This document shows positions 33,800-64,000 of a DNA stretch of 64,000 nt, piece by piece. Under the pieces are notes generated by a model. The model was given only the letters and a program-made list of their open reading frames with translations. It was not told where the DNA came from and made no database searches. Source of the DNA: an uncultured Erwinia sp. Lineage in GTDB: Bacteria > Pseudomonadota > Gammaproteobacteria > Enterobacterales > Enterobacteriaceae. The stretch lies in contig CALYQW010000008.1 in assembly GCA_945290265.1 (NCBI GenBank), positions 3,494 to 67,493 of the forward strand, written 5' to 3'. The stretch's first letter is position 1; every line of letters starts with the position of its first letter. The translations under genes were made by a program, and so were the position numbers.

Positions 33800-33900
33800 G
33801 TTTGACGTAGCGGCGGAATTGCCGCAGGCTACGCTGATATCATCATTACAGCACCGTGAAGGCTGGTGATAACCGGTCCTCTATTGATAAGCGAGAATTT

Positions 33901-35346
33901 ATGAGTCTTAATCTGGTAAGTGAGCAGTTACTGACTGCCAACAATCTCACTCACAGCGATCTGTTTTCTGTCCTCAGCCAGCTTTCTGAACGTCGGCTTG
34001 ATTATGCCGATCTCTATTTCCAGTCCAGCTACCATGAATCCTGGGTGCTGGAAGATCGTATTATCAAAGACGGTTCATACAATATTGACCAGGGCGTTGG
34101 CGTGCGCGCCATCAGCGGTGAGAAAACCGGCTTTGCCTATGCTGACCAGCTGACGCTGGATGCGTTGCATCAGAGCGCAACGGCCGCACGCAGTATCGTG
34201 CGTGAGCAGGGTAATGGTCAGTCGCAGGTGCTGAATGCGCTGCAGCATCGGGCGCTGTATCCACAGCAGGATCCGCTGCACAGCCTGACGCGCGAAGAAA
34301 AGATTGCCCTGTTGCACCGCGTGGACAGTGCTGCCCGGGCGGCAGATAAGCGGGTGCAGGAAGTCTCCGTCAGTCTGACCGGCGTTTATGAGCAGGTGCT
34401 GGTAGCGGCCACTGATGGCACCCTGGCCGCGGATATTCGTCCGCTGGTGCGTCTGTCGGTCAGCGTCCAGGTGGAAGAAGACGGCAAGCGCGAGCGCGGC
34501 AGCAGCGGCGGCGGCGGGCGCTTTGGCTATGAATTCTTCCTGGCTAATGAGTCCGGTGAAGTGCGGGCCGATGCCTGGGCGCGTGAAGCGGTGCGCATGG
34601 CGCTGGTGAATCTCAATGCGGTGGCCGCGCCGGCGGGATCGATCCCGGTGGTGCTGGGTGCCGGCTGGCCGGGCGTATTGCTGCATGAAGCGGTGGGGCA
34701 CGGTCTGGAAGGGGATTTTAACCGCCGTGGCACCTCGGTGTTCAGTGGTCAGATTGGCCAGCTGGTGGCGTCAGAACTGTGCACCGTGGTGGACGATGGC
34801 ACCCTGGAAGGGCTGCGCGGCTCGCTGGCGATGGATGACGAAGGCGTACCGGGTCAGTACAACGTGCTGATCGAAAATGGCGTGCTGAAGGGCTATATGC
34901 AGGACAAACTCAACGCCCGCCTGATGGGGGTTGCGCCAACCGGCAATGGTCGCCGTGAATCCTACGCGCATCTGCCGATGCCACGTATGACCAACACTTA
35001 TATGCTGGCCGGTCAGTCCACGCCGGAAGAGATTATTGCCAGCGTCGACTACGGCCTGTATGCCCCTAACTTTGGCGGCGGTCAGGTGGATATTACTTCC
35101 GGTAAATTTGTCTTCTCGACCTCGGAAGCGTATCTGATCGAAAACGGTAAAGTGACCAAACCGGTGAAGGGGGCAACGCTGATTGGCTCCGGCATTGAAG
35201 CGATGCAGCAAATTTCGATGGTCGGCAACGATCTGGCGCTGGACAAAGGCGTTGGCGTTTGTGGCAAAGAAGGCCAGAGCCTGCCGGTCGGCGTAGGTCA
35301 GCCCACGCTGAAACTGGATAAACTCACGGTGGGTGGGACTGCCTGA
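33901..35346 (+). CDS. tldD: Metalloprotease TldD
   Basis: From ORF 33856..35346 (the track start is a GTG). ATG 33901 ([11 protein letters not shown]) gives 481 aa, as in E. coli. Contains the [16 protein letters not shown] zinc motif. Confidence 0.97.
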
Positions 35347-40287: not shown

Positions 40288-40557
40288 ATGCATAAAGAAA
40301 TATTTGATTTCAACCAGATTAGCGGACAGGACGATTTCTTCGCTCAGTTCAGCCAGCGCTTTGCACTGGCGGCTAACAGTATCCACGATCTTGAAGCCCT
40401 GTGGCTGGCCATTGTCTGCCGGCGTATTCCGCTACCGCTGGAGATTGTGTTTACCAATCTCACCCGTGTGGCTCAACGGCGTTACGGTGCGCTGATCCTG
40501 CTGATGGAAAATGCGGAAGAAGAGCTGGAAGGGCAGTTTGAATTTAATCGCGGCTGA
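40288..40557 (+). CDS. yhcO: Barstar-family protein YhcO
   Basis: 89 aa. Contains FDFNQISGQDDFFAQFSQRF, LPLEIVF and RRYGALILLMENAEEELEGQFEFN, matching the E. coli YhcO pattern. Confidence 0.85.
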   Translation: MHKEIFDFNQISGQDDFFAQFSQRFALAANSIHDLEALWLAIVCRRIPLPLEIVFTNLTRVAQRRYGALILLMENAEEELEGQFEFNRG

Positions 40558-41769: not shown

Positions 41770-42240
41770 TTACAGCTCCTGCTCAAACAGTGCCAGGATC
41801 GCATCGTGCAGTTGCTGCACGGTAAAATTGCGTGCCGGAGTAATAAAGATAGTGTCATCGCCGGCGATAGTGCCAAGAATACCTTCAGCTTTGCCCAGCG
41901 AATCCAGCAGGCGGGCAATTAACTGCGCCGCGCCTGGGCTGGTGTGGATCACCACCAGCGCATCGTTAAAATCAATATCCAGTACCAGGTTCTTCAACGG
42001 ACTGGTGGTGGTGGGGACACCAAGCTCTGCGGGCAGGCAGTAAACCATCTCCATTTTAGTATTACGAGTGCGCACCGCACCAAATTTTGTCAGCATGCGC
42101 GACACTTTGGACTGATTAATGCTTTCAAAACCTTCCGCCTGCAGCGCGCTGACTATCTCGCCCTGAGAACTGAATTTTTCTTCTTTGAGCAGAGATTTGA
42201 ACGCTTTAGTCAAATCGTCTTGTTTGGATGAATTACGCAT
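41770..42240 (-). CDS. argR: Arginine repressor
   Basis: 156 aa. [32 protein letters not shown]...[22 protein letters not shown] is near-identical to E. coli ArgR. Confidence 0.98.
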
Positions 42241-51223: not shown

Positions 51224-51835
51224 ATGAAAGTTTCGGGACTGCAAAGAAAAGAGAATATTATCAATAATATAGAGTATATTATACGCAGTCGGGGCGAAAG
51301 CAAAGTTTCCTTTGCAAGTCGTACAGGCGTAACCCGTGCCTCTTTATATAAGATATTAGATGGAAAGGTGAACAATGTTCATCGTTCAACCATAACCCGT
51401 ATTGCCGATTTTTTCGGAGTCTCCTGTGAAATCATTGAAAACTACGATTTAGAACATTTTGAGCTGGTCGAAAATACGCTTTCCCCAGATGGCAACAAAA
51501 ATCCCGCCGCTGTACCGGTTATTCCACAGTCTGAATTTATGTCCAGCTTTGAAAGCCGGATCGGTAATCTGGTTACGCAGTATCCTGTGACCTGGTATTT
51601 CGGCGATGTTTCCAATATGGTCGCCCTGTCAGTGGAAGATAAAATAGGGAAGATATTCCTCGCCGGAGATACATTAATTATTAAAAGAAAGGCTCGGCCT
51701 GTAAATAAACAGCTGGCATTATATTTTTCTGCTAAAAAAGGGTTCTTTATCAGAGAAGGTAGTGAAAGCATTATTTCTTATCCCGAAGAGGGTGAGTCTA
51801 TGTTGGGTACCGTGGTGGAAGAAAGGATCCAGTAA
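51224..51835 (+). CDS. XRE-family HTH regulator with a CI/LexA-like (S24-like) C-terminal domain that appears to lack the Ser-Lys dyad
   Basis: 203 aa. N-terminal HTH: SFASRTGVTRASLYKILDGKVNNVHRSTITRIADFFGVS. Linker AAVPVIPQSEF resembles the VP.hG..aG entry into S24 domains. The segment ALSVEDKIGKIFLAGDTLIIKR aligns by eye to LexA RVSGMSMKDIGIMDGDLLAV, with the catalytic Ser position not conserved. Confidence 0.6.
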   Translation: MKVSGLQRKENIINNIEYIIRSRGESKVSFASRTGVTRASLYKILDGKVNNVHRSTITRIADFFGVSCEIIENYDLEHFELVENTLSPDGNKNPAAVPVIPQSEFMSSFESRIGNLVTQYPVTWYFGDVSNMVALSVEDKIGKIFLAGDTLIIKRKARPVNKQLALYFSAKKGFFIREGSESIISYPEEGESMLGTVVEERIQ

Positions 51836-51870
51836 AAATAGCGGATAATTAACATTGAGGGTGGGTGGGG

Positions 51871-52758
51871 ATGGAAAATAACAAAAAGTATAAGCTGTTG
51901 GGGTTTAATCGCTCGAAAGTGATTACAGCCAATATTATGGTGCTGGCTACCGGTAAACATCTCAATATTGGCTTACAGGAGCTGGAAAGTAGCGAAATAG
52001 CAGATGATCTAAACCGTAATGAGTTAAAAGCGCTCTATCGTCGATTTTATGGCGATAAAAATACGGTGACATCGTATGAACTTGGTGACAGGAATGAGCG
52101 TTCCTGGTATGCTTACTTGATCATCAGTGTTGCACTGGCGGTTATTTATATACTCAGTACGGTCAGCGGCGTGAAGCCCATTCATATACCGATAATCAAT
52201 TTTGTAGTACCCCCGGCCATCTTATTTTATCCACTTTCTTTTATTTTTGTGGATATTATTAATGAGTTTTACGGACTGCGTATGGCGCGCAGAACCATCT
52301 TTATTTCATTTGTCTCCAATACCCTTTTCGTCACCGGGTTATGGCTCACCAGCCTGCTTCCCGGCCTCGCCGAGTGGGAGTTGAATGCCCCCTATAGCGA
52401 GTTTGTCCATAGCATTATCGCGGTACTCTTCGCCTCTTCAGCTGCCTGGCTGATATCAGAGAATATTAATGCTGTAATACTCTGTAAAATAAGGGAGTTA
52501 ACCAACTCCAGATATCTTTTTATCCGCGTAATCACCAGTAATGTGATCGCATCCGCCATTGACAGCGTGATATTTTGTACGCTGGCGTTTTACAATATCC
52601 TGAGCGCTGATACGATTAAAACCATGATTATTTCCCAGTTCATTATTAAGTTAGGCTATGCACTAATCGGTGTCGGGCCAATTTATGGGGTCAGGGCGTT
52701 ATTCAGGAAATATATTAATAATCAGCCCACTTTGCATGAAAACAAGGAACCGGTATGA
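51871..52758 (+). CDS. VUT-family (YhhQ/DUF165-like) queuosine-precursor transporter with an ~85-aa N-terminal extension
   Basis: From ORF 51865..52758 (the track start is a GTG; ATG at 51871). The TM core shows the family pattern [29 protein letters not shown] (compare YhhQ FPFIFLATDLTVRIFGAPLARRIIFAV). Residues 1-85 are hydrophilic and have no counterpart in E. coli YhhQ. Confidence 0.65.
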
Positions 52759-53582
52759 AAACTGAAGAAATTACTTTGCTGGGTAAAAGCACTGGCTACA
52801 TTCAGCAATATGCACCGGAATTGCTGGAGTCTCTTCCCCGTTCACGCGGCAGAGATGAAATTAATCTGAAATCAGATAATCTGCCATTCAGCGGATTTGA
52901 TTTATGGACCGGATTTGAACTTTCCTGGCTGAACGATAAAGGTAAGCCGGTAGTGGCGATCGCGGAATTTTTTATCGCGGCAGACAGCCAGAGCCTGATT
53001 GAGTCCAAGTCATTTAAACTCTATCTGAACAGCTTTAATCAGACAAAATTTGCTTCATCGGATGTGGTTGCCGCTACGCTGGAGAAAGATTTGTCTCGGG
53101 CCGCTGGGGGCAAAGTGCAGGTGAAGGTTTATCCCGATCTCACGCACTATCCTGCAGTGATTGCCTCGCTGCCGGGTGAATGTATTGACCAGCTGGATAT
53201 TGAGATCGCTGATTACGATTTTAACCCGGATTATCTGCAACAGGCGGTTTCAGATGAAATGGTAGCGGAAACGCTCAGTTCCAACCTGTTGAAATCTAAC
53301 TGTCTGGTGACCAATCAACCCGACTGGGGCACGGTGATCATTAAATATGAAGGCAGAAAAATAAACCCTGAGCATCTGCTGCGCTACCTGATTTCATTCA
53401 GAACCCATAATGAGTTCCATGAACAGTGCGTGGAGCGGATTTTCAATGATATCAGCCACTACTGTAAACCGGAGAAATTAACCGTGTTTGCCCGCTATAC
53501 CCGTCGCGGGGGGCTGGATATTAATCCGTTCAGAAGTAACTTTGAGCAGACGCTGCCAGCAGCGCGCCTGGTGCGGCAATAG
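52755..53582 (+). CDS. queF: NADPH-dependent 7-cyano-7-deazaguanine (preQ0) reductase, bimodular type
   Basis: 275 aa. Contains the QueF motif [17 protein letters not shown], the catalytic-Cys context [15 protein letters not shown], and [16 protein letters not shown]...[16 protein letters not shown]. Ends LVRQ like E. coli QueF. The ATG overlaps the transporter stop (ATGA). Confidence 0.93.
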
Positions 53583-53636: not shown

Positions 53637-55394
53637 TTAATACACGTCGCGCAGATAGCGTTTCTGCTTTTTCAGCTGGTCGATGTAGTTGGCGGTACTT
53701 TCTGCCGACAGTCCACCAAAGCGGCTGACAATTTCATACAGCGCCTGATCAACGTCTTTTGCCATCCGTGAGGCATCCCCACAGACGTAGAAGCAGCCGC
53801 CTTCTTCCAGCCACGCAAACAGCTCGGCACCCTGTTCCAGCATCCGATCCTGAACATAGATTTTCTCCGCCTGATCGCGTGAGAAGGCCAGATCCAACCG
53901 GGTCAACAGTCCGCTTTGCTGCCAGGCGTTCAGCTGATCCTGATAGATAAAGTCATGTTCCTGATGCTGATCGCCAAAGAACAGCCAGTTTTTCCCGCTG
54001 GCCCCCAGCGCTTCACGCTCTTCGAGGAAAGCGCGGAATGGTGCAATTCCGGTGCCAGGCCCAACCATAATCAGCGGCGCATTATTGTCTGCCGGCAGGC
54101 GGAACGCCTTGTTAGGCGAAATAAAAATCGCCGGCTTCTCGCCGCGTCCGGTACGGTCGCCGAGATAGGTCGAGCAGACGCCGTGACGGGCACGGCTGCT
54201 GCTGTGATAGCGCACTGCAGCCACCGTCAGGTGAACGTGATTCGGGTGCGCTTTTGGGCTGGAGGAGATGGAATAAGCGCGGTACTGCAGCGGACGCAGC
54301 AGGGCAACAAATTCACTGATGCTCAGGGTGCGCTTCAGCTCCAGCTGCAGCAGATCGAGAGTATCTTTGCCCCACAGCCAGACGCCCAGCGCATCGCGGT
54401 CATCATGCTGCAGTACGTGGCGCAGCTCCTGGTTGGTGGTGTTTTCACCGACCCACTCAATCAGCTTGCGTGACGGTTCGGAAATCTCGAACTGCCAGGT
54501 CAGCAGATCCCCCAGGCTGCGCTCAAAGCCGGGAACCGGGGTATCGTAGTCGGCTTTCAGTTGCGTCAGCAGCAGTTCAACCAGCTGCGGATCGTTAACC
54601 GGGATCACACCCAGCGCGTCACCTGCCTGATAGGTCAGGCCGCTGCCGCTGAGATCGAATTCAATATGACGGATCTCTTTACCGGACTGCTCGCCGGACA
54701 GGCGTTTATTGCTGATGATTTCTGCCGCATACGGGTTGTTCTTATTGCTGCCGGGGATCACCGGGGTTTCCGGCAGATTCTCCAGCACCGTGCCGCTGCT
54801 GCCCGCGCTGGCGGCAAACTGTGGCATGGACTGCTGCAGCCACTGTTCGGAAGGCTCTTCATACTCGATATCGCAGTCGATACGATCGCTGACGCGTTTC
54901 GCCCCCAGCTGCTCCAGACGCATATCAAAGAACTTACCGGCCTGGCAGAAGCCATCATAGCTGGTATCACCAATGGCCAGCACGGCAAAGTGCATATGCT
55001 CGAGGCGCGGGGCGGTGCTGGCGGAAAGCGCCTGCCAGAACAGCTGGGCGTTATCCGGCATTTCGCCTTCACCATAGGTTGAGGTGATGATCAGCACATG
55101 ACGCATGGTGGCAAACAGATCGATGTCGATCTCACCCAGCCCCTGAACCACCGGTACCAGCCCTTTGGCGCGCGCGGATCTGGCGGCGCTCTGTGCCAGC
55201 GCCTCGGCATTACCGGTCTGTGAGCCAAACAAAATATTCAGCTGGTTCGTCGAGGTGACGCCAGCGTGACTCGCAGCCTGCGGCTTCTCTTCCAGCACCA
55301 GTAGCCGGGAGTGCAGGCCGGCGAGAAAGCCCGCCAGCCAGTATTTTTGTTCGCCATTGAAGGGCGCATCTTCAGGAATATAAGGGATCTTCAT
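53637..55394 (-). CDS. CysJ-like diflavin (FMN + FAD/NADPH) reductase, sulfite reductase flavoprotein alpha family
   Basis: 585 aa. Flavodoxin motifs: ILFGSQTGNAE, ITSTYGEGEMPDNA, LAIGDTSYDGFCQAG. FAD/NADPH motifs: YRAYSISSSP, HGVCSTYL, VGPGTGIAPFRAFLEER, FYVCGDASRMAKDV. C-terminus RYLRDVY. It lies 59 nt downstream of the GltB-like gene on the same strand. No CysI-like partner is present. Confidence 0.85.
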   Translation of the reverse strand: MKIPYIPEDAPFNGEQKYWLAGFLAGLHSRLLVLEEKPQAASHAGVTSTNQLNILFGSQTGNAEALAQSAARSARAKGLVPVVQGLGEIDIDLFATMRHVLIITSTYGEGEMPDNAQLFWQALSASTAPRLEHMHFAVLAIGDTSYDGFCQAGKFFDMRLEQLGAKRVSDRIDCDIEYEEPSEQWLQQSMPQFAASAGSSGTVLENLPETPVIPGSNKNNPYAAEIISNKRLSGEQSGKEIRHIEFDLSGSGLTYQAGDALGVIPVNDPQLVELLLTQLKADYDTPVPGFERSLGDLLTWQFEISEPSRKLIEWVGENTTNQELRHVLQHDDRDALGVWLWGKDTLDLLQLELKRTLSISEFVALLRPLQYRAYSISSSPKAHPNHVHLTVAAVRYHSSSRARHGVCSTYLGDRTGRGEKPAIFISPNKAFRLPADNNAPLIMVGPGTGIAPFRAFLEEREALGASGKNWLFFGDQHQEHDFIYQDQLNAWQQSGLLTRLDLAFSRDQAEKIYVQDRMLEQGAELFAWLEEGGCFYVCGDASRMAKDVDQALYEIVSRFGGLSAESTANYIDQLKKQKRYLRDVY

Positions 55395-55453
55395 CGTATT
55401 TACTCAATCCTGTGTTTATGTTCATTTAACCTGCCACCTTTACCCGGGTGGTA

Positions 55454-58400
55454 TCAGGATAATTTGCCAACCGCCGCCGCTAATTCAGGCAGTGCCGCAC
55501 GGGCAAACAGCTCTTCAAAGTCAGGCAGGCTACCCAGCACCTGACGGTTATACGCATCCTGATAGATTATCCAGCCGTAGGTTGACAGGCTGTCCATGGA
55601 GCGAATATTGCGCCGGGTCAGGGCTGCCTTATAATCCGCCATGCGCTTTGCGGCGATCAGGCAGGTCAGCTGCTGGTCGTCATAGCTTTCAATCGCGGCG
55701 CGCGCATGGCGCTGCAGCTTGCTAATCAGGGCGAAGTCTTCGGTCATCAGCAGATTGCGTACTGCTTTTTCCACTGCCGCATCGTCCACCGCAGTGCCCT
55801 TCGGCAGTCGTGACAGTGCCAGCTGCTGGGCGGTGCTGAGCACGGTGTAATTGTTCAGCAGGATCAGCATCTCCGGAGTATCGGTTGCCCCATAGGCCGG
55901 CGCAGCCCCTTCGGCAATCGGCTTGCCTGCGCGCCACGCGGCCTTAAATTTCGCCACCTGATGAGCGGCCAGCGCAGCCGACAACTCTTCCAGCAGATCT
56001 TTGCGGCTTTTGGCTTTCAGGATCTCACCGCTGTCCTGATACAGCAGCAGTGAGCGCGGCATAATGTACACAAAGTGCTGGCACTCGCTTTCCCAGTTGT
56101 CCAGCAGCCAGGCGGCGCGCTCGGAGCCGGTTGCTGCCAGATGCCAGTTCAGCATGGTCAGCACGGTTTGCCGGTGTACCTGAGCCATTTCACTGTCTTC
56201 CGCCAGTGAGCCAAACAGCACCGAGTCACGAGCCGCGTAGCGGGCAAATTTGCCGTAAGGATCGTACTGCCAGGCAAAGCCGCCGCTCATGCCGTTACCA
56301 AAGCCCTTACCGAAGCTGCCGAGGTTCAGCACCGCTCCGTTGGTCATGTATTCGCAGCAGAAATCGCCCACGCCTTCCACGACCGCACTGGCACCGGAAT
56401 TACGAACCGCGAAGCGGTCACCGGCCTGACCCTGAACAAACAGTCGGCCACCGGTGGCACCAAACAGCGCGAAGTTACCGATCAGCACGTTACCATCGGC
56501 ATCCGGCGAGCCGCCGCCAGGGGAAACCACTGCAATCTCACCACCGCACTGGCCTTTACCCACGCCATCGTTACAGGTGCCGGTATGCGCCATCTGCATG
56601 CCGTCATTGCAGAACACGCCATAGGACTGCCCGGCCGAGCCGGAAGTCGTAATGCGCACGCTGTGCGGGGCCAGATAATGGCGACCACGATCGTCGCCCA
56701 GTACCGCCGACAGGCCATCGCGCGTAGCTGCATCCAGCTGATGGTTCAGCAAACGTTCAATATCAATCGCCAGCTGGCCGCCAACACTTTTGTGGCGATT
56801 GTTGAGGGTGATGCCGTTCCCCAGCAGGATCTCGCTGCGTGCTTCGTTAACCAGCTGCTGTTGCAGCGTCTCACCCCATGCGCTGTCGAGGGTAAAGTCT
56901 TTTTCCAGATACACCGGACTGGCAATATGAACTTCCGGCACCACGGTTAGCATGGCGCGCAGATCCAGACAGCCCACTTCCAGCGGGTGATCCATCAGGT
57001 GCAGCATATCGGCACGGCCACGAGCCTCACGCAGAGAGCGCAGGCCGAGGCGAGCGAGGATTTCCCGCACTTCGTGCGCCACGTTGAGGAAATACTGCGC
57101 CAGCTGACGCGGATCGCCATCAAAGGCTTCGGCATTGGTGGTCAGGCCGGCCGGGCATTTGACGTTACAGTTTTTCGCCATCACGCACTTCAGCATCATC
57201 AGCGCGGTGGTGCCGAATTCAAAGCTGTCGCCGCCCAGCAAAGCAGATTTCACCACGTCACTGCCGGTTTGCTGCGCGCCCGAGCAGCGCAGCTGCACTT
57301 TGTCACGCAGCCCGTTGGCGCACAGCGCCTGGTGGACTTCGGCAATGCCGATTTCCGCTACCCGCCCGGTATATTTCAGGCTGGTAACCGAGGCGGCACC
57401 GGTACCGCCGGTATTTCCGGCCACGTTAATCACGTCAGCACCGGCTTTCGCTACGCCAACGGCGATGGTGCCAATCCCTTCTGAGGACACCAGCTTGACG
57501 ATCACCCGCACCCGCGCAGCTTTACAGTCGTGGATCAGCTGCGCCAGATCTTCAATCGAGTAGGTATCATGGTGCGGTGGTGGCGACACCAGCTCAACGC
57601 CAGGGGTACCGCCACGTGCGGCGGCGATTTCCACGGTGACTTTGGCTGACGGCAGCTGGCCGCCTTCGCCGGGTTTCGCGCCCTGACCAATTTTAATTTC
57701 CAGTTCTTCCAGCATCGGGTCAGCCAGGTAGGCCGCCCAGACGCCGAAACGACCGGAAGCCAGCTGTTTGATACGTGACGCGCGCAGGGTGCCGTGACGC
57801 GAGTAGTGCTCACCCCCTTCACCACAGTTACTCATCCCACCGACCATATTGGTGCCGTGTGCCACCGCCTCATGGGCCGGTGCCACCAGTGCGCCGTGGC
57901 TCATTGCACCGGAGGCAAAAGTCCGGGTAATTTCGCAGGCAGGCTGGATTTCACTTAACGGCAGCGCTGGCGCAATGGTGAAGAAGCGCGACAGATAATC
58001 GGCAGCTTTGCCCTGCGCCATGATCACCAGGGACTCAGCGCTGACTTCGCTATGTTCGATCTCCGCGCCAAAGCGCGCCTTCAGCGTCTGTAGCAACACT
58101 TCCAGACGCTGCTGGTGTGGTTTCAGTCCAGCCACCGCATCCGGCAGGCGCAGCATAAATTCACCTGCCCGGCCGCCGCTTTCACACACCAGCCCGCGCA
58201 CCGCGAAGCTGTTATTCACCAGCGAATAGCGGTTCAGCTTGCGGCTGAATTCCGCCAGGCTGTCCACATGGGTTAAATCGCAGGGATAGGCCAGGATATC
58301 ACGCAGCGCAGCCGGGCGGCGCTTACGTTCCTGATACATCAGGCTTGAGAACTGACGGTAGTCCGGGGTGACGGCAAAGTGGTTGATAACCTCATCCGGA

Positions 58401-60982
58401 ATACGTTCAAAGCTGCTGCCGGCAAACGTAGTCTCTTTGATATCGAACGCATTGTTCAGTTTCGCCAGCGTCAGCAGACGCACAAACTGATCGTCTTCGC
58501 GCGGTTTATCGGCAAAGCGGATCGGCTGCTCCGTCATATCAATAAAGGTACGCACCGCAATAGTGCCGTAAGAGTGACCAGCACCTTCCGCCCGCTCTTT
58601 AAACAGCCCCAGCAGTGGCACTTCGGCTTCACTCTGAATTTTCAGGGCACTTTGATGCCAGTCTACGGCCATCTGCGCGATAGCGGCAAAGCCGGCACCG
58701 CCGACCGGGGTTTTGATATTGGGGAAATATTTCTTTAATACGGCATCGTTGGTATCGAGGAAGTTCGGCTCAAAGAATTCGCCGCAGCTGTAGCTTTCCA
58801 CAGTACAGAGTCCAACTTTACCCATGGTTTTCATCAGCGCTTTTTCAGCCGCTTTGGCATACAGCTTAAAGGCTTTATTGCCGCCTTCGCCTTCACCGTA
58901 TTTTTGTTCCGCGCGCATCTGCACGCCCAGCGGATAGATCGCTGAGGCACCGAAGCCGAGGGCGGCGGCAATATGGTGTGAAGAGATACTTTGTCCGCTC
59001 TCAACTACCAGGGACACGTCCAGACGCAGCCCTTCCTGCACCAGACGCTGGTTAGCAGCGGAGACCACCAGCAGCATCGGGATAGCGGCGCGTGAGGAGG
59101 CAATATGGCGGTCGGTCAGCACCGCAATGCCGCCCTGATCGCGGGCAAAATCCACCACCTGTTGCACGAGGTCGTCGACCGCCTGCTCCAGCGCCCGGGC
59201 ATTCGCCCGACGGCTCTGCTCATCATTGCCGATCACCGGCTGATACAGCATCTCAAAGCGGGCATAAGGGGCGACTTTCTGCTCACGCAGCTGCAGCATA
59301 TCCAGATGCGAGAGGATAGGGCCGGGCACCACGATTTGTTTGCCTTTGCTGCGTCCCAGGTGGGGTTTGGCCCCCAGCGCAACGCGCATCGTCATCCCGT
59401 CCGCTTCACGGATGGAATCCAGCGGCGGGTTGGTCACCTGGGCAAAGCGCTGGGAGAAGTAGTGCGCCATGCCACCTTCATGGTCGGAAAGGGCGTTGAT
59501 CGCGTTGCCGTAACCCATTGCCGAGATTTTCTCTGCACCGGTTGCCAGCATCGGATCCATCATAAATTTAAAGCTTTCCTGGTTGTAATAGTAGGCAACA
59601 AACCGCTGCCAGACTTGCAGATCGCCGCCGTAGCGCAGCGGTGAGCCCTGCTGCTCCGCCGGAACCGCAGGCAGCTCCTGTAGCGTAACACGCGACTGCG
59701 CCAGCAGCGCCGGATAGTCTTTCTCTGCTGCCAGTTTTTCCAGCGCTTCAACCGTGGTATAGCTGCGTTTTTCCTGATGATCGTAATAAAGCATGCCGCC
59801 GGCTTCGATACGGCCACGGCGCAGCACGCTTTGCGGCGGGAAGGCGATCTGACCGGCTTCGGACATCGCGCCTATATACTCAGCGGTCTCCACCGAGCGC
59901 AGCGGACGCAGCCCCAGACGGTCAAGACGGGCACCGATAATCTCACCGTTACCAAAAATCAGTGCTGCCGGGCCATCGTTTTTCTCTTCGTACAGTGAGA
60001 AATATTCCAGCATCGCGCGCACGTTGTCTGACAGGGAATCATCGTTCTCCCAGGCCGGTGGCATCATGGAAACCACGGCATAAATCAGCCCGAGGTTATC
60101 TTCCATCAGACGACTGTGGAGACTCTGATCGAGGCGTGAACTGTCCGACTGACCGTTTGGGCGCACAATTTTTTTGCCCCGGGCCAGTGCCAGTGCTGCT
60201 TCGGCAATACGGTTTTTACGGTCGGTATTCAGCTCACCGTTATGCGCCATCAGCCGGAAGGGCTGCGCCATGGTGGTGTGCGGATCGGTGTTGGTGGAGA
60301 AGCGGGTGTGGAAAAACAAACCGCGCACCTGGTGATCGGGATCGGTCAGATCGGCAAAGTAGGGGATTACCTCGCCGGAGTTCAGGCGGGCTTTAAATAC
60401 CTGAGTACGTGATGACAGCGACAGCGGATAGAGTCCGCCGAATTCTGCTTCAGTAAAAGCACGGGCTTCAATATCCAGCAGGGCGCGATAAATACATTTT
60501 TCAAATTCGTTCTGGTCGCTGATGCCCTGCGGGCGGGCAAAGATCCACTGCACAATCGGCAGCTGAAAAGAAATGGCTGCAGGAGGAAGCACCCGGGTAT
60601 CCAGCGGCAGATCGCGTTTCTTCATCACCTTCAGGCCGTAAGCCGCCAGGGTATCTTCCACCAGGCGTTCGCCGTTGGCGCGCAGTGCCGGATCTTTCGC
60701 CACGAAGAAGTTACCGACGCCAAAATGCCCGGCTTCCAGCAGCTGGCCGGTAATTTTGCGGAAGAAGGTCAACGAAAGATCGACGTTGACGCCAGCCCCG
60801 TCGCCGACGCCTTCAGCTGACATGCCACCACGGTGGGGAACGGTGCAAAGTGCACTGTGAGCCATCTGAAGGATCTCGTGGGTCTGCTCGCCATCCTTAC
60901 GCGTAATAAACCCCACGCCGCAGCTGTCATTTTCCTGGGTTGGGTCATATAAACCGTAGGGATAGGATATTGAGTCGGACAT
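55454..60982 (-). CDS. Atypical long glutamate synthase large-subunit-like protein (Ntn-amidotransferase + central + FMN/3Fe-4S + GXGXG domains, with extra segments)
   Basis: From ORF 55454..61012. ATG 60982 has an AAGGAGG Shine-Dalgarno 6 nt upstream and gives 1842 aa. Amidotransferase Cys context: ENDSCGVGF. Also HTRFSTNT and AHNGELNT. FMN domain: ASGAMSHGAL..AHEAVA.G.N..GG.SNCGEGGE, KIGQGAKPGEGGQLP, SPPPHHD.YSIEDLAQLI. Cys cluster: LKCVMAKNCNVKCPAG. GXGXG domain: GSAGQSYGVF, GVGDFCCEYMTNG, GNGMSGGFAW. It is about 350 aa longer than E. coli GltB as I remember it. Confidence 0.85.
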   Translation of the reverse strand: MSDSISYPYGLYDPTQENDSCGVGFITRKDGEQTHEILQMAHSALCTVPHRGGMSAEGVGDGAGVNVDLSLTFFRKITGQLLEAGHFGVGNFFVAKDPALRANGERLVEDTLAAYGLKVMKKRDLPLDTRVLPPAAISFQLPIVQWIFARPQGISDQNEFEKCIYRALLDIEARAFTEAEFGGLYPLSLSSRTQVFKARLNSGEVIPYFADLTDPDHQVRGLFFHTRFSTNTDPHTTMAQPFRLMAHNGELNTDRKNRIAEAALALARGKKIVRPNGQSDSSRLDQSLHSRLMEDNLGLIYAVVSMMPPAWENDDSLSDNVRAMLEYFSLYEEKNDGPAALIFGNGEIIGARLDRLGLRPLRSVETAEYIGAMSEAGQIAFPPQSVLRRGRIEAGGMLYYDHQEKRSYTTVEALEKLAAEKDYPALLAQSRVTLQELPAVPAEQQGSPLRYGGDLQVWQRFVAYYYNQESFKFMMDPMLATGAEKISAMGYGNAINALSDHEGGMAHYFSQRFAQVTNPPLDSIREADGMTMRVALGAKPHLGRSKGKQIVVPGPILSHLDMLQLREQKVAPYARFEMLYQPVIGNDEQSRRANARALEQAVDDLVQQVVDFARDQGGIAVLTDRHIASSRAAIPMLLVVSAANQRLVQEGLRLDVSLVVESGQSISSHHIAAALGFGASAIYPLGVQMRAEQKYGEGEGGNKAFKLYAKAAEKALMKTMGKVGLCTVESYSCGEFFEPNFLDTNDAVLKKYFPNIKTPVGGAGFAAIAQMAVDWHQSALKIQSEAEVPLLGLFKERAEGAGHSYGTIAVRTFIDMTEQPIRFADKPREDDQFVRLLTLAKLNNAFDIKETTFAGSSFERIPDEVINHFAVTPDYRQFSSLMYQERKRRPAALRDILAYPCDLTHVDSLAEFSRKLNRYSLVNNSFAVRGLVCESGGRAGEFMLRLPDAVAGLKPHQQRLEVLLQTLKARFGAEIEHSEVSAESLVIMAQGKAADYLSRFFTIAPALPLSEIQPACEITRTFASGAMSHGALVAPAHEAVAHGTNMVGGMSNCGEGGEHYSRHGTLRASRIKQLASGRFGVWAAYLADPMLEELEIKIGQGAKPGEGGQLPSAKVTVEIAAARGGTPGVELVSPPPHHDTYSIEDLAQLIHDCKAARVRVIVKLVSSEGIGTIAVGVAKAGADVINVAGNTGGTGAASVTSLKYTGRVAEIGIAEVHQALCANGLRDKVQLRCSGAQQTGSDVVKSALLGGDSFEFGTTALMMLKCVMAKNCNVKCPAGLTTNAEAFDGDPRQLAQYFLNVAHEVREILARLGLRSLREARGRADMLHLMDHPLEVGCLDLRAMLTVVPEVHIASPVYLEKDFTLDSAWGETLQQQLVNEARSEILLGNGITLNNRHKSVGGQLAIDIERLLNHQLDAATRDGLSAVLGDDRGRHYLAPHSVRITTSGSAGQSYGVFCNDGMQMAHTGTCNDGVGKGQCGGEIAVVSPGGGSPDADGNVLIGNFALFGATGGRLFVQGQAGDRFAVRNSGASAVVEGVGDFCCEYMTNGAVLNLGSFGKGFGNGMSGGFAWQYDPYGKFARYAARDSVLFGSLAEDSEMAQVHRQTVLTMLNWHLAATGSERAAWLLDNWESECQHFVYIMPRSLLLYQDSGEILKAKSRKDLLEELSAALAAHQVAKFKAAWRAGKPIAEGAAPAYGATDTPEMLILLNNYTVLSTAQQLALSRLPKGTAVDDAAVEKAVRNLLMTEDFALISKLQRHARAAIESYDDQQLTCLIAAKRMADYKAALTRRNIRSMDSLSTYGWIIYQDAYNRQVLGSLPDFEELFARAALPELAAAVGKLS

Positions 60983-61956
60983 TGCGAGCCTCCTTAAAAC
61001 TTCTCTGGACATTACCTTAGAACCTGATGGTCAGGCTCTTATTGTTTTAGTGATGGAGCACAGCACTCTTGCCGCTGGCTCTCTGTTATTTTCTGCCGCG
61101 CGCAGGCGGACACCTGAGGTCAGACGGCTTCAGTCCCGGGGCGAGGCCGCTAAAATTACGGGTATATTAATAATGGAAATAACCGGGCTCCTGAAGGAGT
61201 CTTTTATTGCATAGATATGCCGAAAGGCTGAGTCGTAAGACCTGCTTCCAGCGAATTTCCAACTTATCGGGAAAGCGCATCGAGGTCAAATTAAGTAATG
61301 ACTGAGGTTTTTTAACGTGTTTTTATTGTTATATGACTGATTATTATATGTTTATTCATTGTTTTTAACCGGATTTATATCCTTTGCACCGGACGAGAAG
61401 TGTGAGCTGTCTCACTATAGGGCAATAGAGAAATCTCTGCACCGTGCTGGTGCTACCGGGTATTGTTAGCATAAATGGCTGGAGTGATAACAAAAGTCCC
61501 GTAAAAATACTGTTTTTAATTCTATACATTAATAGATTTAAAACCGGGGGTACGATAAGAAATTTTAATTGCACGCAGAGTGCTTTTTTTTTCGTAAATA
61601 ATGAATGATTATTCGACGGGTAAAACAGGATGAAGCGGTCAGACCAAGCCACCGCACAGGAAAAGCGTCGCGATTAACACGCTCCTGGTCATCGGAGCGG
61701 CCTTACAGATTATGCAGTTATAAAATTTAGTCAATACCCTGCTGCCCGCTCGTACGCCCGGTGAGCGGATATTTTCTGTGAGGAAAATATTCGTCTGGCG
61801 CAGAAGGATGCTTCAGGTCAGCGCAGCGGGCTGATCCTGCACCATCATCGTACATCGGGTCACTGCACTTTTTATGCGCGTCAACGCTTGCGGTTAATGA
61901 TGGGTCTTTTAGCTGATTCCGGTATGATTATATTTATTACAGGCAGGGAGCGTTAT

Positions 61957-64000
61957 ATGAAACAAATTCGGTTATTAGCGCAATATTACGTTGATTTAAT
62001 GGTGAAGCTGGGGCTGATCCGCTTTTCACTGTTACTGGCATCGGCACTGGTGGTGCTGGCGATGGTGGTACAAATGGCGGTGACCATGGTGCTGCGTGGT
62101 CATGTGGAAAGCATTGATATCGTGCGATCCGTGTTCTTTGGTTTGTTAATTACGCCCTGGGCGGTGTATTTCCTGTCGGTGGTGGTAGAGCAGCTGGAAG
62201 AGTCACGTCAGCGCTTATCACGGCTGGTGGATAAACTGGAAGTTATGCGGCGCAGCGACGTCGAGCTTAAGCAGCAGATGCAGGGCAATATTACCCGGCT
62301 TAATCAGGAGATTGCTGACCGTATTAAGGCGGAAGAAGCTCGCTTACAGGTGGTGACCCGACTGGAAGAGGAGATGGCACGCCGCGAGCAGGCGCAGACT
62401 GAGCTGGAACAACAGTCGTCGTTCCTGCGTTCATTTCTTGATGCTTCACCGGATCTGGTTTTTTACCGTAACAGCGATCAGCAATTCTCCGGTTGTAACC
62501 GCGCGATGGAGCTGCTGACCGGGAAAAGTGAAAAACAGCTGATTGGCCTGACACCGGCTAAAATTTACGATCGGGATGCGGCAAAAAAAGTCTCAGAAAC
62601 CGATGAGAAGGTGTTTCGCCACAACGTGTCACTGACTTATGAGCAGTGGCTGTGCTACCCGGACGGACGCAAAGTGTGTTTTGAAATCCGTAAAGTGCCC
62701 TACTATGACCGGGTGGGTAAACGTAGCGGATTGATGGGCTTTGGTCGTGATATCACTGAACGTAAGCGTTATCAGGATGCGCTGGAGCAGGCCAGCCGGG
62801 AAAAGACCACCTTTATCTCGACCATCAGTCATGAGCTGCGCACGCCGCTGAATGGTATCGTTGGCCTGAGCAGGATCCTGCTGGATACCCGTCTTACTCC
62901 GGAACAGAACAACTACCTGAAAACGATTTACGTTTCTGCCATTACGCTGGGTAATATCTTTAACGATGTTATTGAGATGGATAAAATCGAGCGGCGTAAG
63001 GTACAGCTTGATAACCAGCCCATTGATTTTACTGGTTTTATAGCCGACCTCGAAAATATCTCAGGGCTACTGACGCAGCCGAAAGGGTTAAAGTTTTCTC
63101 TGGTTCACGAGCAGCCCCTGCCACGTAAAATTATCACTGACGGTACCCGACTGCGTCAGATCCTGTGGAATTTGATCGGCAACGCGGTGAAGTTCACTCA
63201 GCAGGGTGAAGTGGTGGTGCGGGTCAGTTACCTCAGCAACGACCGCCTGTGTTTTGAAGTGGAAGACTCCGGTATGGGGATCCCACAGGATGAGCAGGAG
63301 AAGATCTTTGCCATGTATTATCAGGTTAAAGATCAGCGTGGTGGTAAGCCGGCTACCGGTACTGGCATCGGTCTGGCGGTTTCCCGTCGTCTGGCGCAGA
63401 GCATGGGAGGCGATATCACCGTTAGCAGCCAGCCCGGCGAGGGAACCTGTTTTACGCTGACGATTAACGCACCGCGGATAGCGGAAGAGATGGTAGCAGC
63501 ATTAAACGACGAGCTGCCGCTACCGGCGCTCCATGTACTACTGGTAGAAGATATTGAGTTAAATGTGGTGGTAGCACGTTCAGTGCTGGAGAAATTGGGT
63601 AACAGCGTGGAAGTGGCGATGACCGGTGAAGAAGCACTGGCATTGTTTGATCCGCAGGAATTTGATCTGGTACTGCTGGATATCCAGCTACCGGATATGA
63701 CCGGGCTGGATGTGGCGCGCACTATTCATCAACGCTATGCCGGTCAGCAACTGCCGCCACTGATTGCGCTGACGGCCAACGTACTGAAAGATAAACGTGA
63801 GTACTTTGATGCCGGAATGGATGATGTTCTGAGCAAGCCGCTGTCAGTTCCGGCGTTAACCGCGATGATCAAGCAACACTGGGACTGCCATTCTCGACCG
63901 ATCCCCGCCGTCAGCGTTACCGTCAGCGACAGTCATCATCTGGAACTACTGGATATTGCGATGCTGGAACAGTATCTGGATCTGGTGGGACCGCAGCTGA
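61957..64000 (+). CDS. arcB: Aerobic respiration control sensor kinase ArcB (5' partial in window; continues past 64000)
   Basis: ATG 61957 gives MKQIRLLAQYYVDLMVKLGLIRFSLLLA...LITPWAVYFLSVVVEQLEESRQRLSRLV...FISTISHELRTPLNGIVGLSRILLDT...LLVEDIELNVVVARSVLEKLGNSV, near-identical to E. coli ArcB. It is not in the ORF track because no stop is reached. Confidence 0.97.
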   Translation, partial: MKQIRLLAQYYVDLMVKLGLIRFSLLLASALVVLAMVVQMAVTMVLRGHVESIDIVRSVFFGLLITPWAVYFLSVVVEQLEESRQRLSRLVDKLEVMRRSDVELKQQMQGNITRLNQEIADRIKAEEARLQVVTRLEEEMARREQAQTELEQQSSFLRSFLDASPDLVFYRNSDQQFSGCNRAMELLTGKSEKQLIGLTPAKIYDRDAAKKVSETDEKVFRHNVSLTYEQWLCYPDGRKVCFEIRKVPYYDRVGKRSGLMGFGRDITERKRYQDALEQASREKTTFISTISHELRTPLNGIVGLSRILLDTRLTPEQNNYLKTIYVSAITLGNIFNDVIEMDKIERRKVQLDNQPIDFTGFIADLENISGLLTQPKGLKFSLVHEQPLPRKIITDGTRLRQILWNLIGNAVKFTQQGEVVVRVSYLSNDRLCFEVEDSGMGIPQDEQEKIFAMYYQVKDQRGGKPATGTGIGLAVSRRLAQSMGGDITVSSQPGEGTCFTLTINAPRIAEEMVAALNDELPLPALHVLLVEDIELNVVVARSVLEKLGNSVEVAMTGEEALALFDPQEFDLVLLDIQLPDMTGLDVARTIHQRYAGQQLPPLIALTANVLKDKREYFDAGMDDVLSKPLSVPALTAMIKQHWDCHSRPIPAVSVTVSDSHHLELLDIAMLEQYLDLVGPQL

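Follow-up and report, generated by a model that had tools for sequence, protein, structure and literature searches.

Within a 64,000-nucleotide (nt) stretch of DNA from an uncultured Erwinia sp. (GenBank assembly GCA_945290265.1, contig CALYQW010000008.1, positions 3,494 to 67,493 of the forward strand; the whole stretch is called the window below), the site that in Escherichia coli holds the glutamate synthase (GOGAT) genes gltB and gltD is occupied by a gene for an unusually long large subunit, gltB-L, and by a gene for a CysJ-like diflavin reductase. The pair probably encodes a two-component glutamate synthase dependent on reduced nicotinamide adenine dinucleotide phosphate (NADPH), in which the reductase would take the place of GltD. 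With somewhat less assurance, it can be proposed to represent a fourth class of glutamate synthase, a "diflavin-reductase-dependent GOGAT", which would consist of a subunit of ~1840 amino acids (aa) with two undescribed domains and a dedicated reductase, would have spread by horizontal gene transfer across at least four phyla, would be fused into one polypeptide in at least one Lentisphaeraceae lineage, and would have its reductase misannotated as a sulfite reductase. In the canonical bacterial NADPH-GOGAT, the electrons arrive via GltD (two 4Fe-4S clusters, flavin adenine dinucleotide (FAD) and NADPH). A first-pass annotation made from the letters of the window had suggested the diflavin wiring; it is supported as far as sequence analysis reaches and stays a prediction.

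The local description given in that annotation is fully borne out. Comparison with the gene order of E. coli K-12 places the pair in the syntenic gltBD slot, the two genes lie on the same strand with a gap of 59 nt, Pfam scans recover all four GltB domains in the 1842-aa protein, and Pfam together with motif inspection identifies a complete CysJ-type reductase with the C-terminal tail RYLRDVY. Neither GltD nor CysI, both said to be missing, has any match in the 64-kb window when the E. coli proteins are used as tblastn queries (E ≤ 1e-5). The longest open reading frame (ORF) of gltB-L spans 55454..61012(-) and encodes 1852 aa, whereas the public gene call starts at the ATG at 60982 and gives the 1842-aa product, of which the database entry P0001 is an exact match; an AAGGAGG ribosome-binding site lies 7 nt upstream of this ATG, within a conserved block. 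The reductase gene is located downstream of gltB-L. No terminator occurs in the spacer between them, which holds an AGGA ribosome-binding site, and the two genes are presumably co-transcribed.

The catalytic core of GltB-L follows that of the known glutamate synthases. First, the four GltB Pfam domains are found in canonical order with E-values of 3e-50 to 4e-102. Next, the catalytic cysteine of the glutamine amidotransferase domain is present in the context ...ENDS|CGVGF, where DS|CGVGF aligns with DN|CGFGL of E. coli GltB and the cysteine is invariant in all ten aligned family members; removal of a 20-aa propeptide would turn Cys21 of GltB-L into Cys1. The amidotransferase motifs HxRFSTNT and AHNGExNT are likewise kept in the alignment, the segments GAKPGEGGQLP, SPPPHHD-YSIEDLAQLI and GGTGA align to the solved GOGATs, and the motifs for flavin mononucleotide (FMN) and 2-oxoglutarate are near-identical to those in four solved enzymes. 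Finally, the three 3Fe-4S cysteines are conserved, although they are spaced as C-X5-C-X3-C, compared with C-X5-C-X4-C in every solved GOGAT. A check for lost catalytic residues thus finds no loss on alignment, whether of Cys1, of the FMN motifs or of the cysteines of the 3Fe-4S cluster. An additional Fe-S site within the GXGXG domain was considered on account of Cys1458, Cys1470, Cys1479 and Cys1543, which are conserved in the proteobacterial members, and was rejected, as Cys1458 and Cys1479 are replaced by Leu and Ser in the Lentisphaeraceae-type sequences.

The closest solved relatives of GltB-L are the alpha subunits of NADPH-GOGATs, with scores of 813 bits for 7mfm and 755 bits for 6s6s, compared with 696 bits for the ferredoxin-dependent GOGAT (Fd-GOGAT) 1llw; no solved structure of the long-GltB type was found. 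The loop specific to Fd-GOGATs, situated after GEGGE and before IKQxASGRFGV, is absent from GltB-L, and the segment is shorter than in the solved enzymes of both the ferredoxin and the NADPH type. The protein is 30% identical to E. coli GltB in the N-terminal half and 41% in the C-terminal half, and against the NCBIfam GltB equivalog model (NF008730 / PRK11750) it scores 1052.2 bits, barely reaching the cut-off of 1047.

The partner protein has the Pfam domains Flavodoxin_1, FAD_binding_1 and NAD_binding_1. Its FMN, FAD and NADPH motifs, including the NADPH-type motif AFSRDQ...YVQ, and the terminal aromatic residue are conserved, and cofactor binding can accordingly be predicted for a protein that is, by its motifs, a complete NADPH diflavin reductase of the superfamily of cytochrome P450 reductase (CPR), CysJ and methionine synthase reductase (MSR). 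The first ~30 residues (MKIPYIPEDAPFNxDQKAWLAGFLAGL) are among the best-conserved stretches of the reductase from Agrobacterium to Erwinia; CysJ has a related N-terminal peptide, which mediates oligomerisation.

The association of the two genes extends far beyond Erwinia. To follow the co-occurrence, a single genome of each GTDB species was scanned with an alignment specific to the C-terminal extension of GltB-L; 411 genomes matched, and the best 80 of these were retrieved with 10-kb flanks, which together with separately fetched loci of Methylobacillus and Agrobacterium make up 82 loci. In every one of the 82 the long gltB is immediately followed by the reductase gene, and the distance between the two varies across lineages, from genes that overlap by 4 nt to gaps of less than about 190 nt. 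GltD does not adjoin the pair at any of these loci, in agreement with the window, and the gltD-like gene of Corticibacter discussed below belongs to a separate canonical gltB. Six loci outside this set show the same adjacency, among them four from Gibbsiella, Gordonia crocea (Actinomycetota), Methylicorpusculum and a metagenome-assembled genome (MAG) of Planctomycetota. The pair is distributed over at least four phyla, with occurrences in Alpha-, Beta- and Gammaproteobacteria, Actinomycetota and Planctomycetota, and its flanking genes are unrelated from lineage to lineage. Measured against the window copies, the two proteins vary together in identity (Pearson r = 0.97 over 76 loci).

In two independent assemblies the two proteins are encoded by a single uninterrupted ORF, namely in a Lentisphaeraceae MAG (P0269) and in an ENA metagenome contig (P0357/L088), the two being 62% identical to each other. 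The order within the fused ORF is the GXGXG domain, the C-terminal extension, the N-terminal motif of the reductase and the flavodoxin domain, which makes it a classic Rosetta-stone fusion of the long GltB with the reductase. A further metagenomic candidate, the 585-aa high-GC P0254, looks like a frame-shifted gene call and was excluded from the fusion evidence.

Several loci show variations on this arrangement. In Gordonia crocea a reductase of 623 aa is encoded directly downstream of the long gltB, and about 1.6 kb upstream of the long-gltB fragment there is a second diflavin reductase gene (581 aa; L089 3598-5343). The gene call for the long gltB gives a 1036-aa product at this locus, and the gene may be truncated or mis-called. 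In Gibbsiella quercinecans the pair is found away from the arcB/sspB locus, about 1 kb downstream of a divergent gene for an AsnC/Lrp-family regulator (L085 8509-9018), which is a possible dedicated regulator of the pair.

The reductase carries the name "sulfite reductase subunit alpha", or a variant of it, in nearly every database source that names it (NCBI, UniRef, JGI), and the adjacency to gltB-L might then have no functional meaning, the protein being a plain sulfite reductase flavoprotein or a general-purpose reductase. Its domain architecture is indeed the same as that of CysJ, and it passes the NCBIfam model NF004859 of that name with a score of 480 against a cut-off of 432, which is probably the model behind the database name. 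It falls, on the other hand, below both NCBIfam cysJ cut-offs, scoring 611 against 668 for TIGR01931 and 506 against 838 for NF008197. A CysI homolog is lacking not only from the window but also within about 10 kb of the pair in 83 non-E. coli loci, and Erwinia amylovora CFBP 1430 has a separate cysJ-cysI3 pair (EAMY_0747/0748) that is differentially expressed alongside other sulfur genes (PMC5561584). Because of these scores, this separate pair and an identity of 40.7% to E. coli CysJ, the reductase is judged to be distinct from the cell's CysJ, and with the invariable pairing amid unrelated flanks, the co-variation and the fusion also taken into account, an incidental neighbourhood is most improbable and effectively refuted.

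The electrons might also originate from a free carrier. Fd-GOGATs act as single large subunits, and GltB-L might similarly be a ferredoxin- or flavodoxin-dependent enzyme, with the CysJ-like protein as an accessory for carrier regeneration, for protection or repair of the Fe-S cluster, or for regulation; the contact between GltB-L and the reductase, being a predicted one, leaves room for such an arrangement. It is nevertheless highly unlikely in view of the missing Fd-GOGAT loop, in a region that is even shorter than in the NADPH-GOGATs, of the strict pairing over at least four phyla, and of the fusion, which puts the flavodoxin-like domain straight onto the C-terminus of GltB.

Where the two proteins of the proposed NADPH-dependent synthase would meet is suggested by the parts of GltB-L that are specific to the family. 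An insertion of ~200 aa at the junction of the central and FMN domains is absent from the E. coli, Bacillus subtilis, Azospirillum and Synechocystis enzymes, and its second half (about aa 900-1005) is modelled by AlphaFold2 (AF2) as a compact alpha/beta domain with a predicted local distance difference test (pLDDT) score of 90-98. A second insertion of ~20 aa is located directly upstream of the GXGXG domain (about aa 1405-1425). The C-terminal extension of ~190 aa comprises nine helices in the AF2 model (mean pLDDT 84.5) and has no fold match in the PDB (Foldseek, best E = 0.7). Of 1.84 billion cluster representatives, only 116 match a profile of the extension. Short fragments make up the majority of these, and the long matches (1016-1839 aa) bear the extension at the C-terminus, as a long GltB would. 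No significant Pfam match was obtained for the large insertion, the C-terminal extension or the N-terminal peptide of the reductase, and these three are proposed as the docking elements of the complex. The alpha/beta domain of the insertion (window 57968-58270) is weakly similar to the C-terminal domain of ArgR in a Foldseek search of the PDB (E about 0.05, template modelling score about 0.56 on the target, probability up to 0.98), which may hint at a role in ligand binding or oligomerisation and serves as a lead only; a genuine ArgR is also encoded in the window, at 41770-42240.

The electron path that can be proposed from these features would run as follows, each of its cofactor sites being supported by motif conservation. 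NADPH would reduce the FAD of the reductase, from which electrons would pass singly to the FMN of the flavodoxin-like domain; this domain would dock on GltB-L and reduce the 3Fe-4S cluster, and the cluster would in turn reduce the FMN of the synthase. The reduced FMN would then reduce 2-iminoglutarate formed from 2-oxoglutarate and ammonia, the latter being released from glutamine at Cys1 and channelled to the synthase site.

In Erwiniaceae the pair has displaced the canonical gltBD. The gene order in E. coli K-12 is arcB-yhcC-gltB-gltD-gltF ... sspB-sspA-rpsI-rplM-zapE, whereas in the window mdh, degS, degQ, zapE, rplM, rpsI, sspA and sspB are followed by three extra genes, the reductase gene, gltB-L and arcB. 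The latter starts at 61957, separated by a 974-bp spacer from the gltB-L start at 60982. In all 66 Erwiniaceae loci arcB is divergent and upstream of the pair, at a distance of about 0.7-1.15 kb in the 16 loci where it was measured, and the yhcC gene that separates arcB from gltB in E. coli is missing from these loci and from the window; its slot is taken by a non-coding region of 0.7-1.15 kb with several strongly conserved blocks (window 60983-61956). Of the 66 other Erwiniaceae loci, 62 have sspB downstream of the reductase gene, in most cases no further away than about 200-500 nt. The pair has a G+C content of 0.58-0.60 compared with 0.44-0.53 in the immediate flanks. The window ArcB is 76% identical to E. 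coli ArcB and 85% to that of a related Erwiniaceae genome. GltB-L, in turn, is 76-80% identical to proteins of Comamonadaceae, 70% to that of Methylobacillus and 67-69% to those of Rhizobiales. Because GltB-L shares 30-41% identity with E. coli GltB, against 76% for ArcB, and yet 67-80% with proteins of the lineages just named, the pair is a xenolog that was acquired horizontally in Erwiniaceae and, at the site between arcB and sspB, displaced gltBD and yhcC in situ.

Published genetics of a related bacterium bear on the function. The genome of Pantoea ananatis AJ13355 was described as having no close homologue of the E. coli GOGAT and only an Agrobacterium-like gltB (PMC3251776). In strain SC17(0), knockout of the Agrobacterium-like gltB is reported to give a glutamate auxotroph, and the glutamine synthetase/GOGAT pathway to be the main route of ammonium assimilation (PMC12364357, 2025). 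The proteins of the P. ananatis locus (L039) are 84% (GltB-L) and 82% (reductase) identical to those of the window, and by these genetics the Erwiniaceae cell appears to make its glutamate mainly through the pair. The two P. ananatis papers make no mention of a small subunit or of the adjacent reductase (PMC3251776, PMC12364357), and no description of a GOGAT with a CysJ-like or diflavin partner was found in the full-text literature accessible to us, which leaves subscription-only papers and patents outside; nor did a check for prior characterisation of the pair find one among solved structures. It thus appears that the large-subunit gene has already been noticed in Pantoea, while the partner, the conservation across phyla, the fusion, the misannotation and the family-specific domains have not been described in the accessible literature.

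The pair could also cooperate as proposed and still not be mainly a glutamate synthase: it might use glutamine for the reductive amination of a different 2-oxo acid, or run in another physiological direction, with the GOGAT role in Pantoea as a special case. In Corticibacter populi a canonical gltB, whose product shares 44% identity with E. coli GltB, begins 2 kb downstream of the pair, and a gltD-like gene follows about 7 kb downstream (L070 14675-20592), so that two kinds of GOGAT are clustered in one genome; Agrobacterium, too, presumably has canonical gltBD alongside the pair. The strong divergence of GltB-L from canonical GltB, its score barely at the equivalog cut-off and its two extra domains of no assigned function would all agree with another substrate. 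The nearly letter-identical FMN and 2-oxoglutarate motifs of the solved GOGATs, the position of the pair at the exact former gltBD site in Erwiniaceae and the auxotrophy of the P. ananatis gltB knockout (PMC12364357) speak against it, and such a function is regarded as unlikely.

Several points weigh against the assignment of the pair as a diflavin-dependent glutamate synthase and have to be set beside the evidence in its favour. The account of the P. ananatis knockout is second-hand, as it cites the genome paper, in which no such knockout is found; the knockout also concerns gltB and not the reductase gene. The genome-wide absence of gltD in Erwiniaceae is taken from a literature statement for one strain. 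The reductase passes a sulfite reductase model, as described above. Of the two fusions, P0269 lies on a partial contig and L088 on a long-read contig with several frameshifts elsewhere. In lineages such as Corticibacter the module would be either redundant or doing something different. Finally, the contact and electron exchange between GltB-L and the reductase are what we infer from the genomic association, and in the cell the large subunit might instead draw its electrons from a free ferredoxin or flavodoxin.

The region upstream of gltB-L contains candidate regulatory elements within its conserved blocks. A sigma-70-like promoter candidate sits inside a conserved block of 104 nt (61192-61295), and the looser pattern TTGAC-N18/19-TAAGTT is found in 65 of the 66 Erwiniaceae loci. 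Further upstream lies a putative NtrC-type palindrome, the sole match with at most one mismatch to the NtrC-type consensus in the 64-kb window. The exact sequence GCACC-N5-GGTGC occurs at equal distance in 19 of the 66 Erwiniaceae loci, often with a second copy further upstream, compared with 9 matches in 1.23 Mb elsewhere. These sites would fit a nitrogen-regulated operon, which is offered as a lead only. A scan for sigma-54 promoters upstream of gltB-L with three mismatches allowed was uninformative, with 324 matches against 365 expected, no GG-N10-GC with correct spacing is visible by eye in the conserved leader, and an Rfam scan of the window found no known RNA family in the gltB-L leader. 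The most conserved upstream block also holds a hairpin, GGGCTCC-TGAA-GGAGTCT, followed by a T-rich run (window 61185-61212 (+)); on the strand opposite to gltB-L it has the look of a terminator, and it could belong to a small antisense or divergent transcript or be a leader structure.

Table 1. Features of the gltB-L/reductase locus in the window and the fused gene in contig L088.
Feature	Position	Strand	Basis and remarks
gltB-L, long glutamate synthase large-subunit gene	55454..60982	(-)	1842 aa plus stop codon; ORF, four Pfam GltB domains, database match P0001
CysJ-like NADPH diflavin reductase gene	53637..55394	(-)	585 aa; N-terminal peptide, flavodoxin (FMN), FAD and NADPH domains; Pfam
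Intergenic spacer gltB-L/reductase	55395..55453	(-)	59 nt; AGGA ribosome-binding site, no terminator
GATase_2, N-terminal nucleophile (Ntn) glutamine amidotransferase domain, aa 21-423	59714..60922	(-)	Pfam E = 4e-83
Glu_syn_central, glutamate synthase central domain, aa 460-738	58769..59605	(-)	Pfam E = 8e-74
Glu_synthase, FMN / 2-oxoglutarate domain, aa 1006-1314	57041..57967	(-)	Pfam E = 4e-102
GXGXG beta-helix domain, aa 1417-1596	56195..56734	(-)	Pfam E = 3e-50
3Fe-4S ligands C1266, C1272, C1276	57155..57187	(-)	Alignment to E. coli GltB, 7mfm, 2vdc, 6s6s, 1llw
Family-specific insertion, about aa 805-1005, central/FMN domain junction	57968..58570	(-)	Alignment; Pfam blank
Family-specific all-helical C-terminal extension, about aa 1650-1842	55457..56035	(-)	AF2, Pfam blank; candidate docking domain
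Sigma-70-like promoter candidate TTGACC-N17-TAAGTT	61261..61289	(-)	About 280 nt upstream of gltB-L; function inferred
NtrC-type palindrome TGCACCGTGCTGGTGCT	61438..61454	(+)	About 460 nt upstream of gltB-L, in conserved block; putative site
Fused long GltB + reductase, Lentisphaeraceae-type (contig L088)	4649-11942		One reading frame across junction; full fused gene about 2400 aa

The three extra genes between sspB and the reductase gene (window 51224-53582) encode a 203-aa Cro/C1-type helix-turn-helix protein, a 297-aa protein similar to Vut_1 and queuosine-precursor transporters, and QueF. The segment is low in G+C (0.44-0.47), no QueF homolog is found between the reductase gene and sspB in the 66 other Erwiniaceae loci, and the segment looks like a small insertion carrying a preQ0/preQ1 salvage module. 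Elsewhere in the window, the only Rfam match is AgrB (RF02891; 35390-35478 (-), 49 bits against a gathering score of 40), directly downstream of a 496-aa ORF at 33856-35346; in E. coli the AgrB antisense RNA belongs to the dinQ/agrAB type I toxin locus. An 89-aa ORF at 40288-40557 (+) gives a borderline Pfam match to Barstar, the barnase inhibitor (E = 5e-5, with a score of 23.6 bits where the cut-off is 23.4).

Together with glutamine synthetase, GOGAT provides the main entry of nitrogen into bacterial and plant metabolism, and its classes are set by the electron donor, which is NADPH via GltD, ferredoxin, or NADH in the fused eukaryotic forms. If true, a class that draws on a CysJ-type diflavin reductase would add to this donor-based scheme, would put right the naming of an entire protein family now called "sulfite reductase subunit alpha" and would offer a new tractable system for flavin-to-Fe-S electron transfer and for the cross-talk between the GOGAT sites. 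Should the pair be the only GOGAT in Erwinia and Pantoea, it would be relevant to fire-blight physiology and to the engineering of glutamate-producing P. ananatis, including NADPH budgeting. The in-situ replacement of gltBD by a xenolog is a clean case of non-orthologous subunit displacement in core metabolism.

Compared with the GltB/GltD enzymes of E. coli, Azospirillum brasilense (2vdc/6s6x) and B. subtilis (GltAB, 7mfm), the pair has a large subunit with the same four domains, the same Cys1 and the same sites for 3Fe-4S and FMN, the alpha subunits of these enzymes are its best sequence matches, the chromosomal slot is that of E. coli gltBD, and NADPH is the predicted ultimate donor. In contrast, GltD is missing and with it the 4Fe-4S clusters and the FAD/NADPH Rossmann subunit, the partner being instead a flavodoxin/FAD/NADPH diflavin reductase. 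GltB-L is also about 350 aa longer than E. coli GltB (1842 vs 1486 aa), has the insertion and the helical C-terminal extension, and differs in the C-X5-C-X3-C cluster motif and by its 30-41% identity. With the Fd-GOGATs of Synechocystis (GlsF, 1ofd/1llw) and plants it has in common a large subunit without GltD, whose 3Fe-4S/FMN site would receive single electrons from a small redox domain. The part of ferredoxin or flavodoxin would presumably fall to the FMN domain of the reductase. GltB-L nevertheless lacks the loop after GEGGE and matches the Fd-GOGATs less well than the NADPH-type alpha subunits, and an NADPH reductase of its own is inherited along with it and in some cases fused to it, whereas Fd-GOGAT stands alone with a free carrier.

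The principle of the proposed enzyme is the same as in CysJ/CysI, where a diflavin flavoprotein passes the electrons of NADPH via FAD and FMN to an adjacently encoded metallo-oxidoreductase, and the reductase possesses all the domains and motifs of CysJ as well as a related N-terminal peptide. The acceptor, however, would be a GltB-type enzyme and not the siroheme/4Fe-4S hemoprotein CysI, and the N-terminus of the reductase is about 16 residues shorter than that of CysJ, with an overall identity of 41%. CPR/CysJ-type modules are likewise fused to or partnered with a redox enzyme in P450 BM3, NO synthase, methionine synthase reductase and the Euglena pyruvate:NADP+ oxidoreductase. We know of no glutamate synthase as the acceptor, and found none in the literature searched, among these diflavin-coupled enzymes, which the long GltB family resembles in that the reductase module comes either as a separate protein or fused to its partner.

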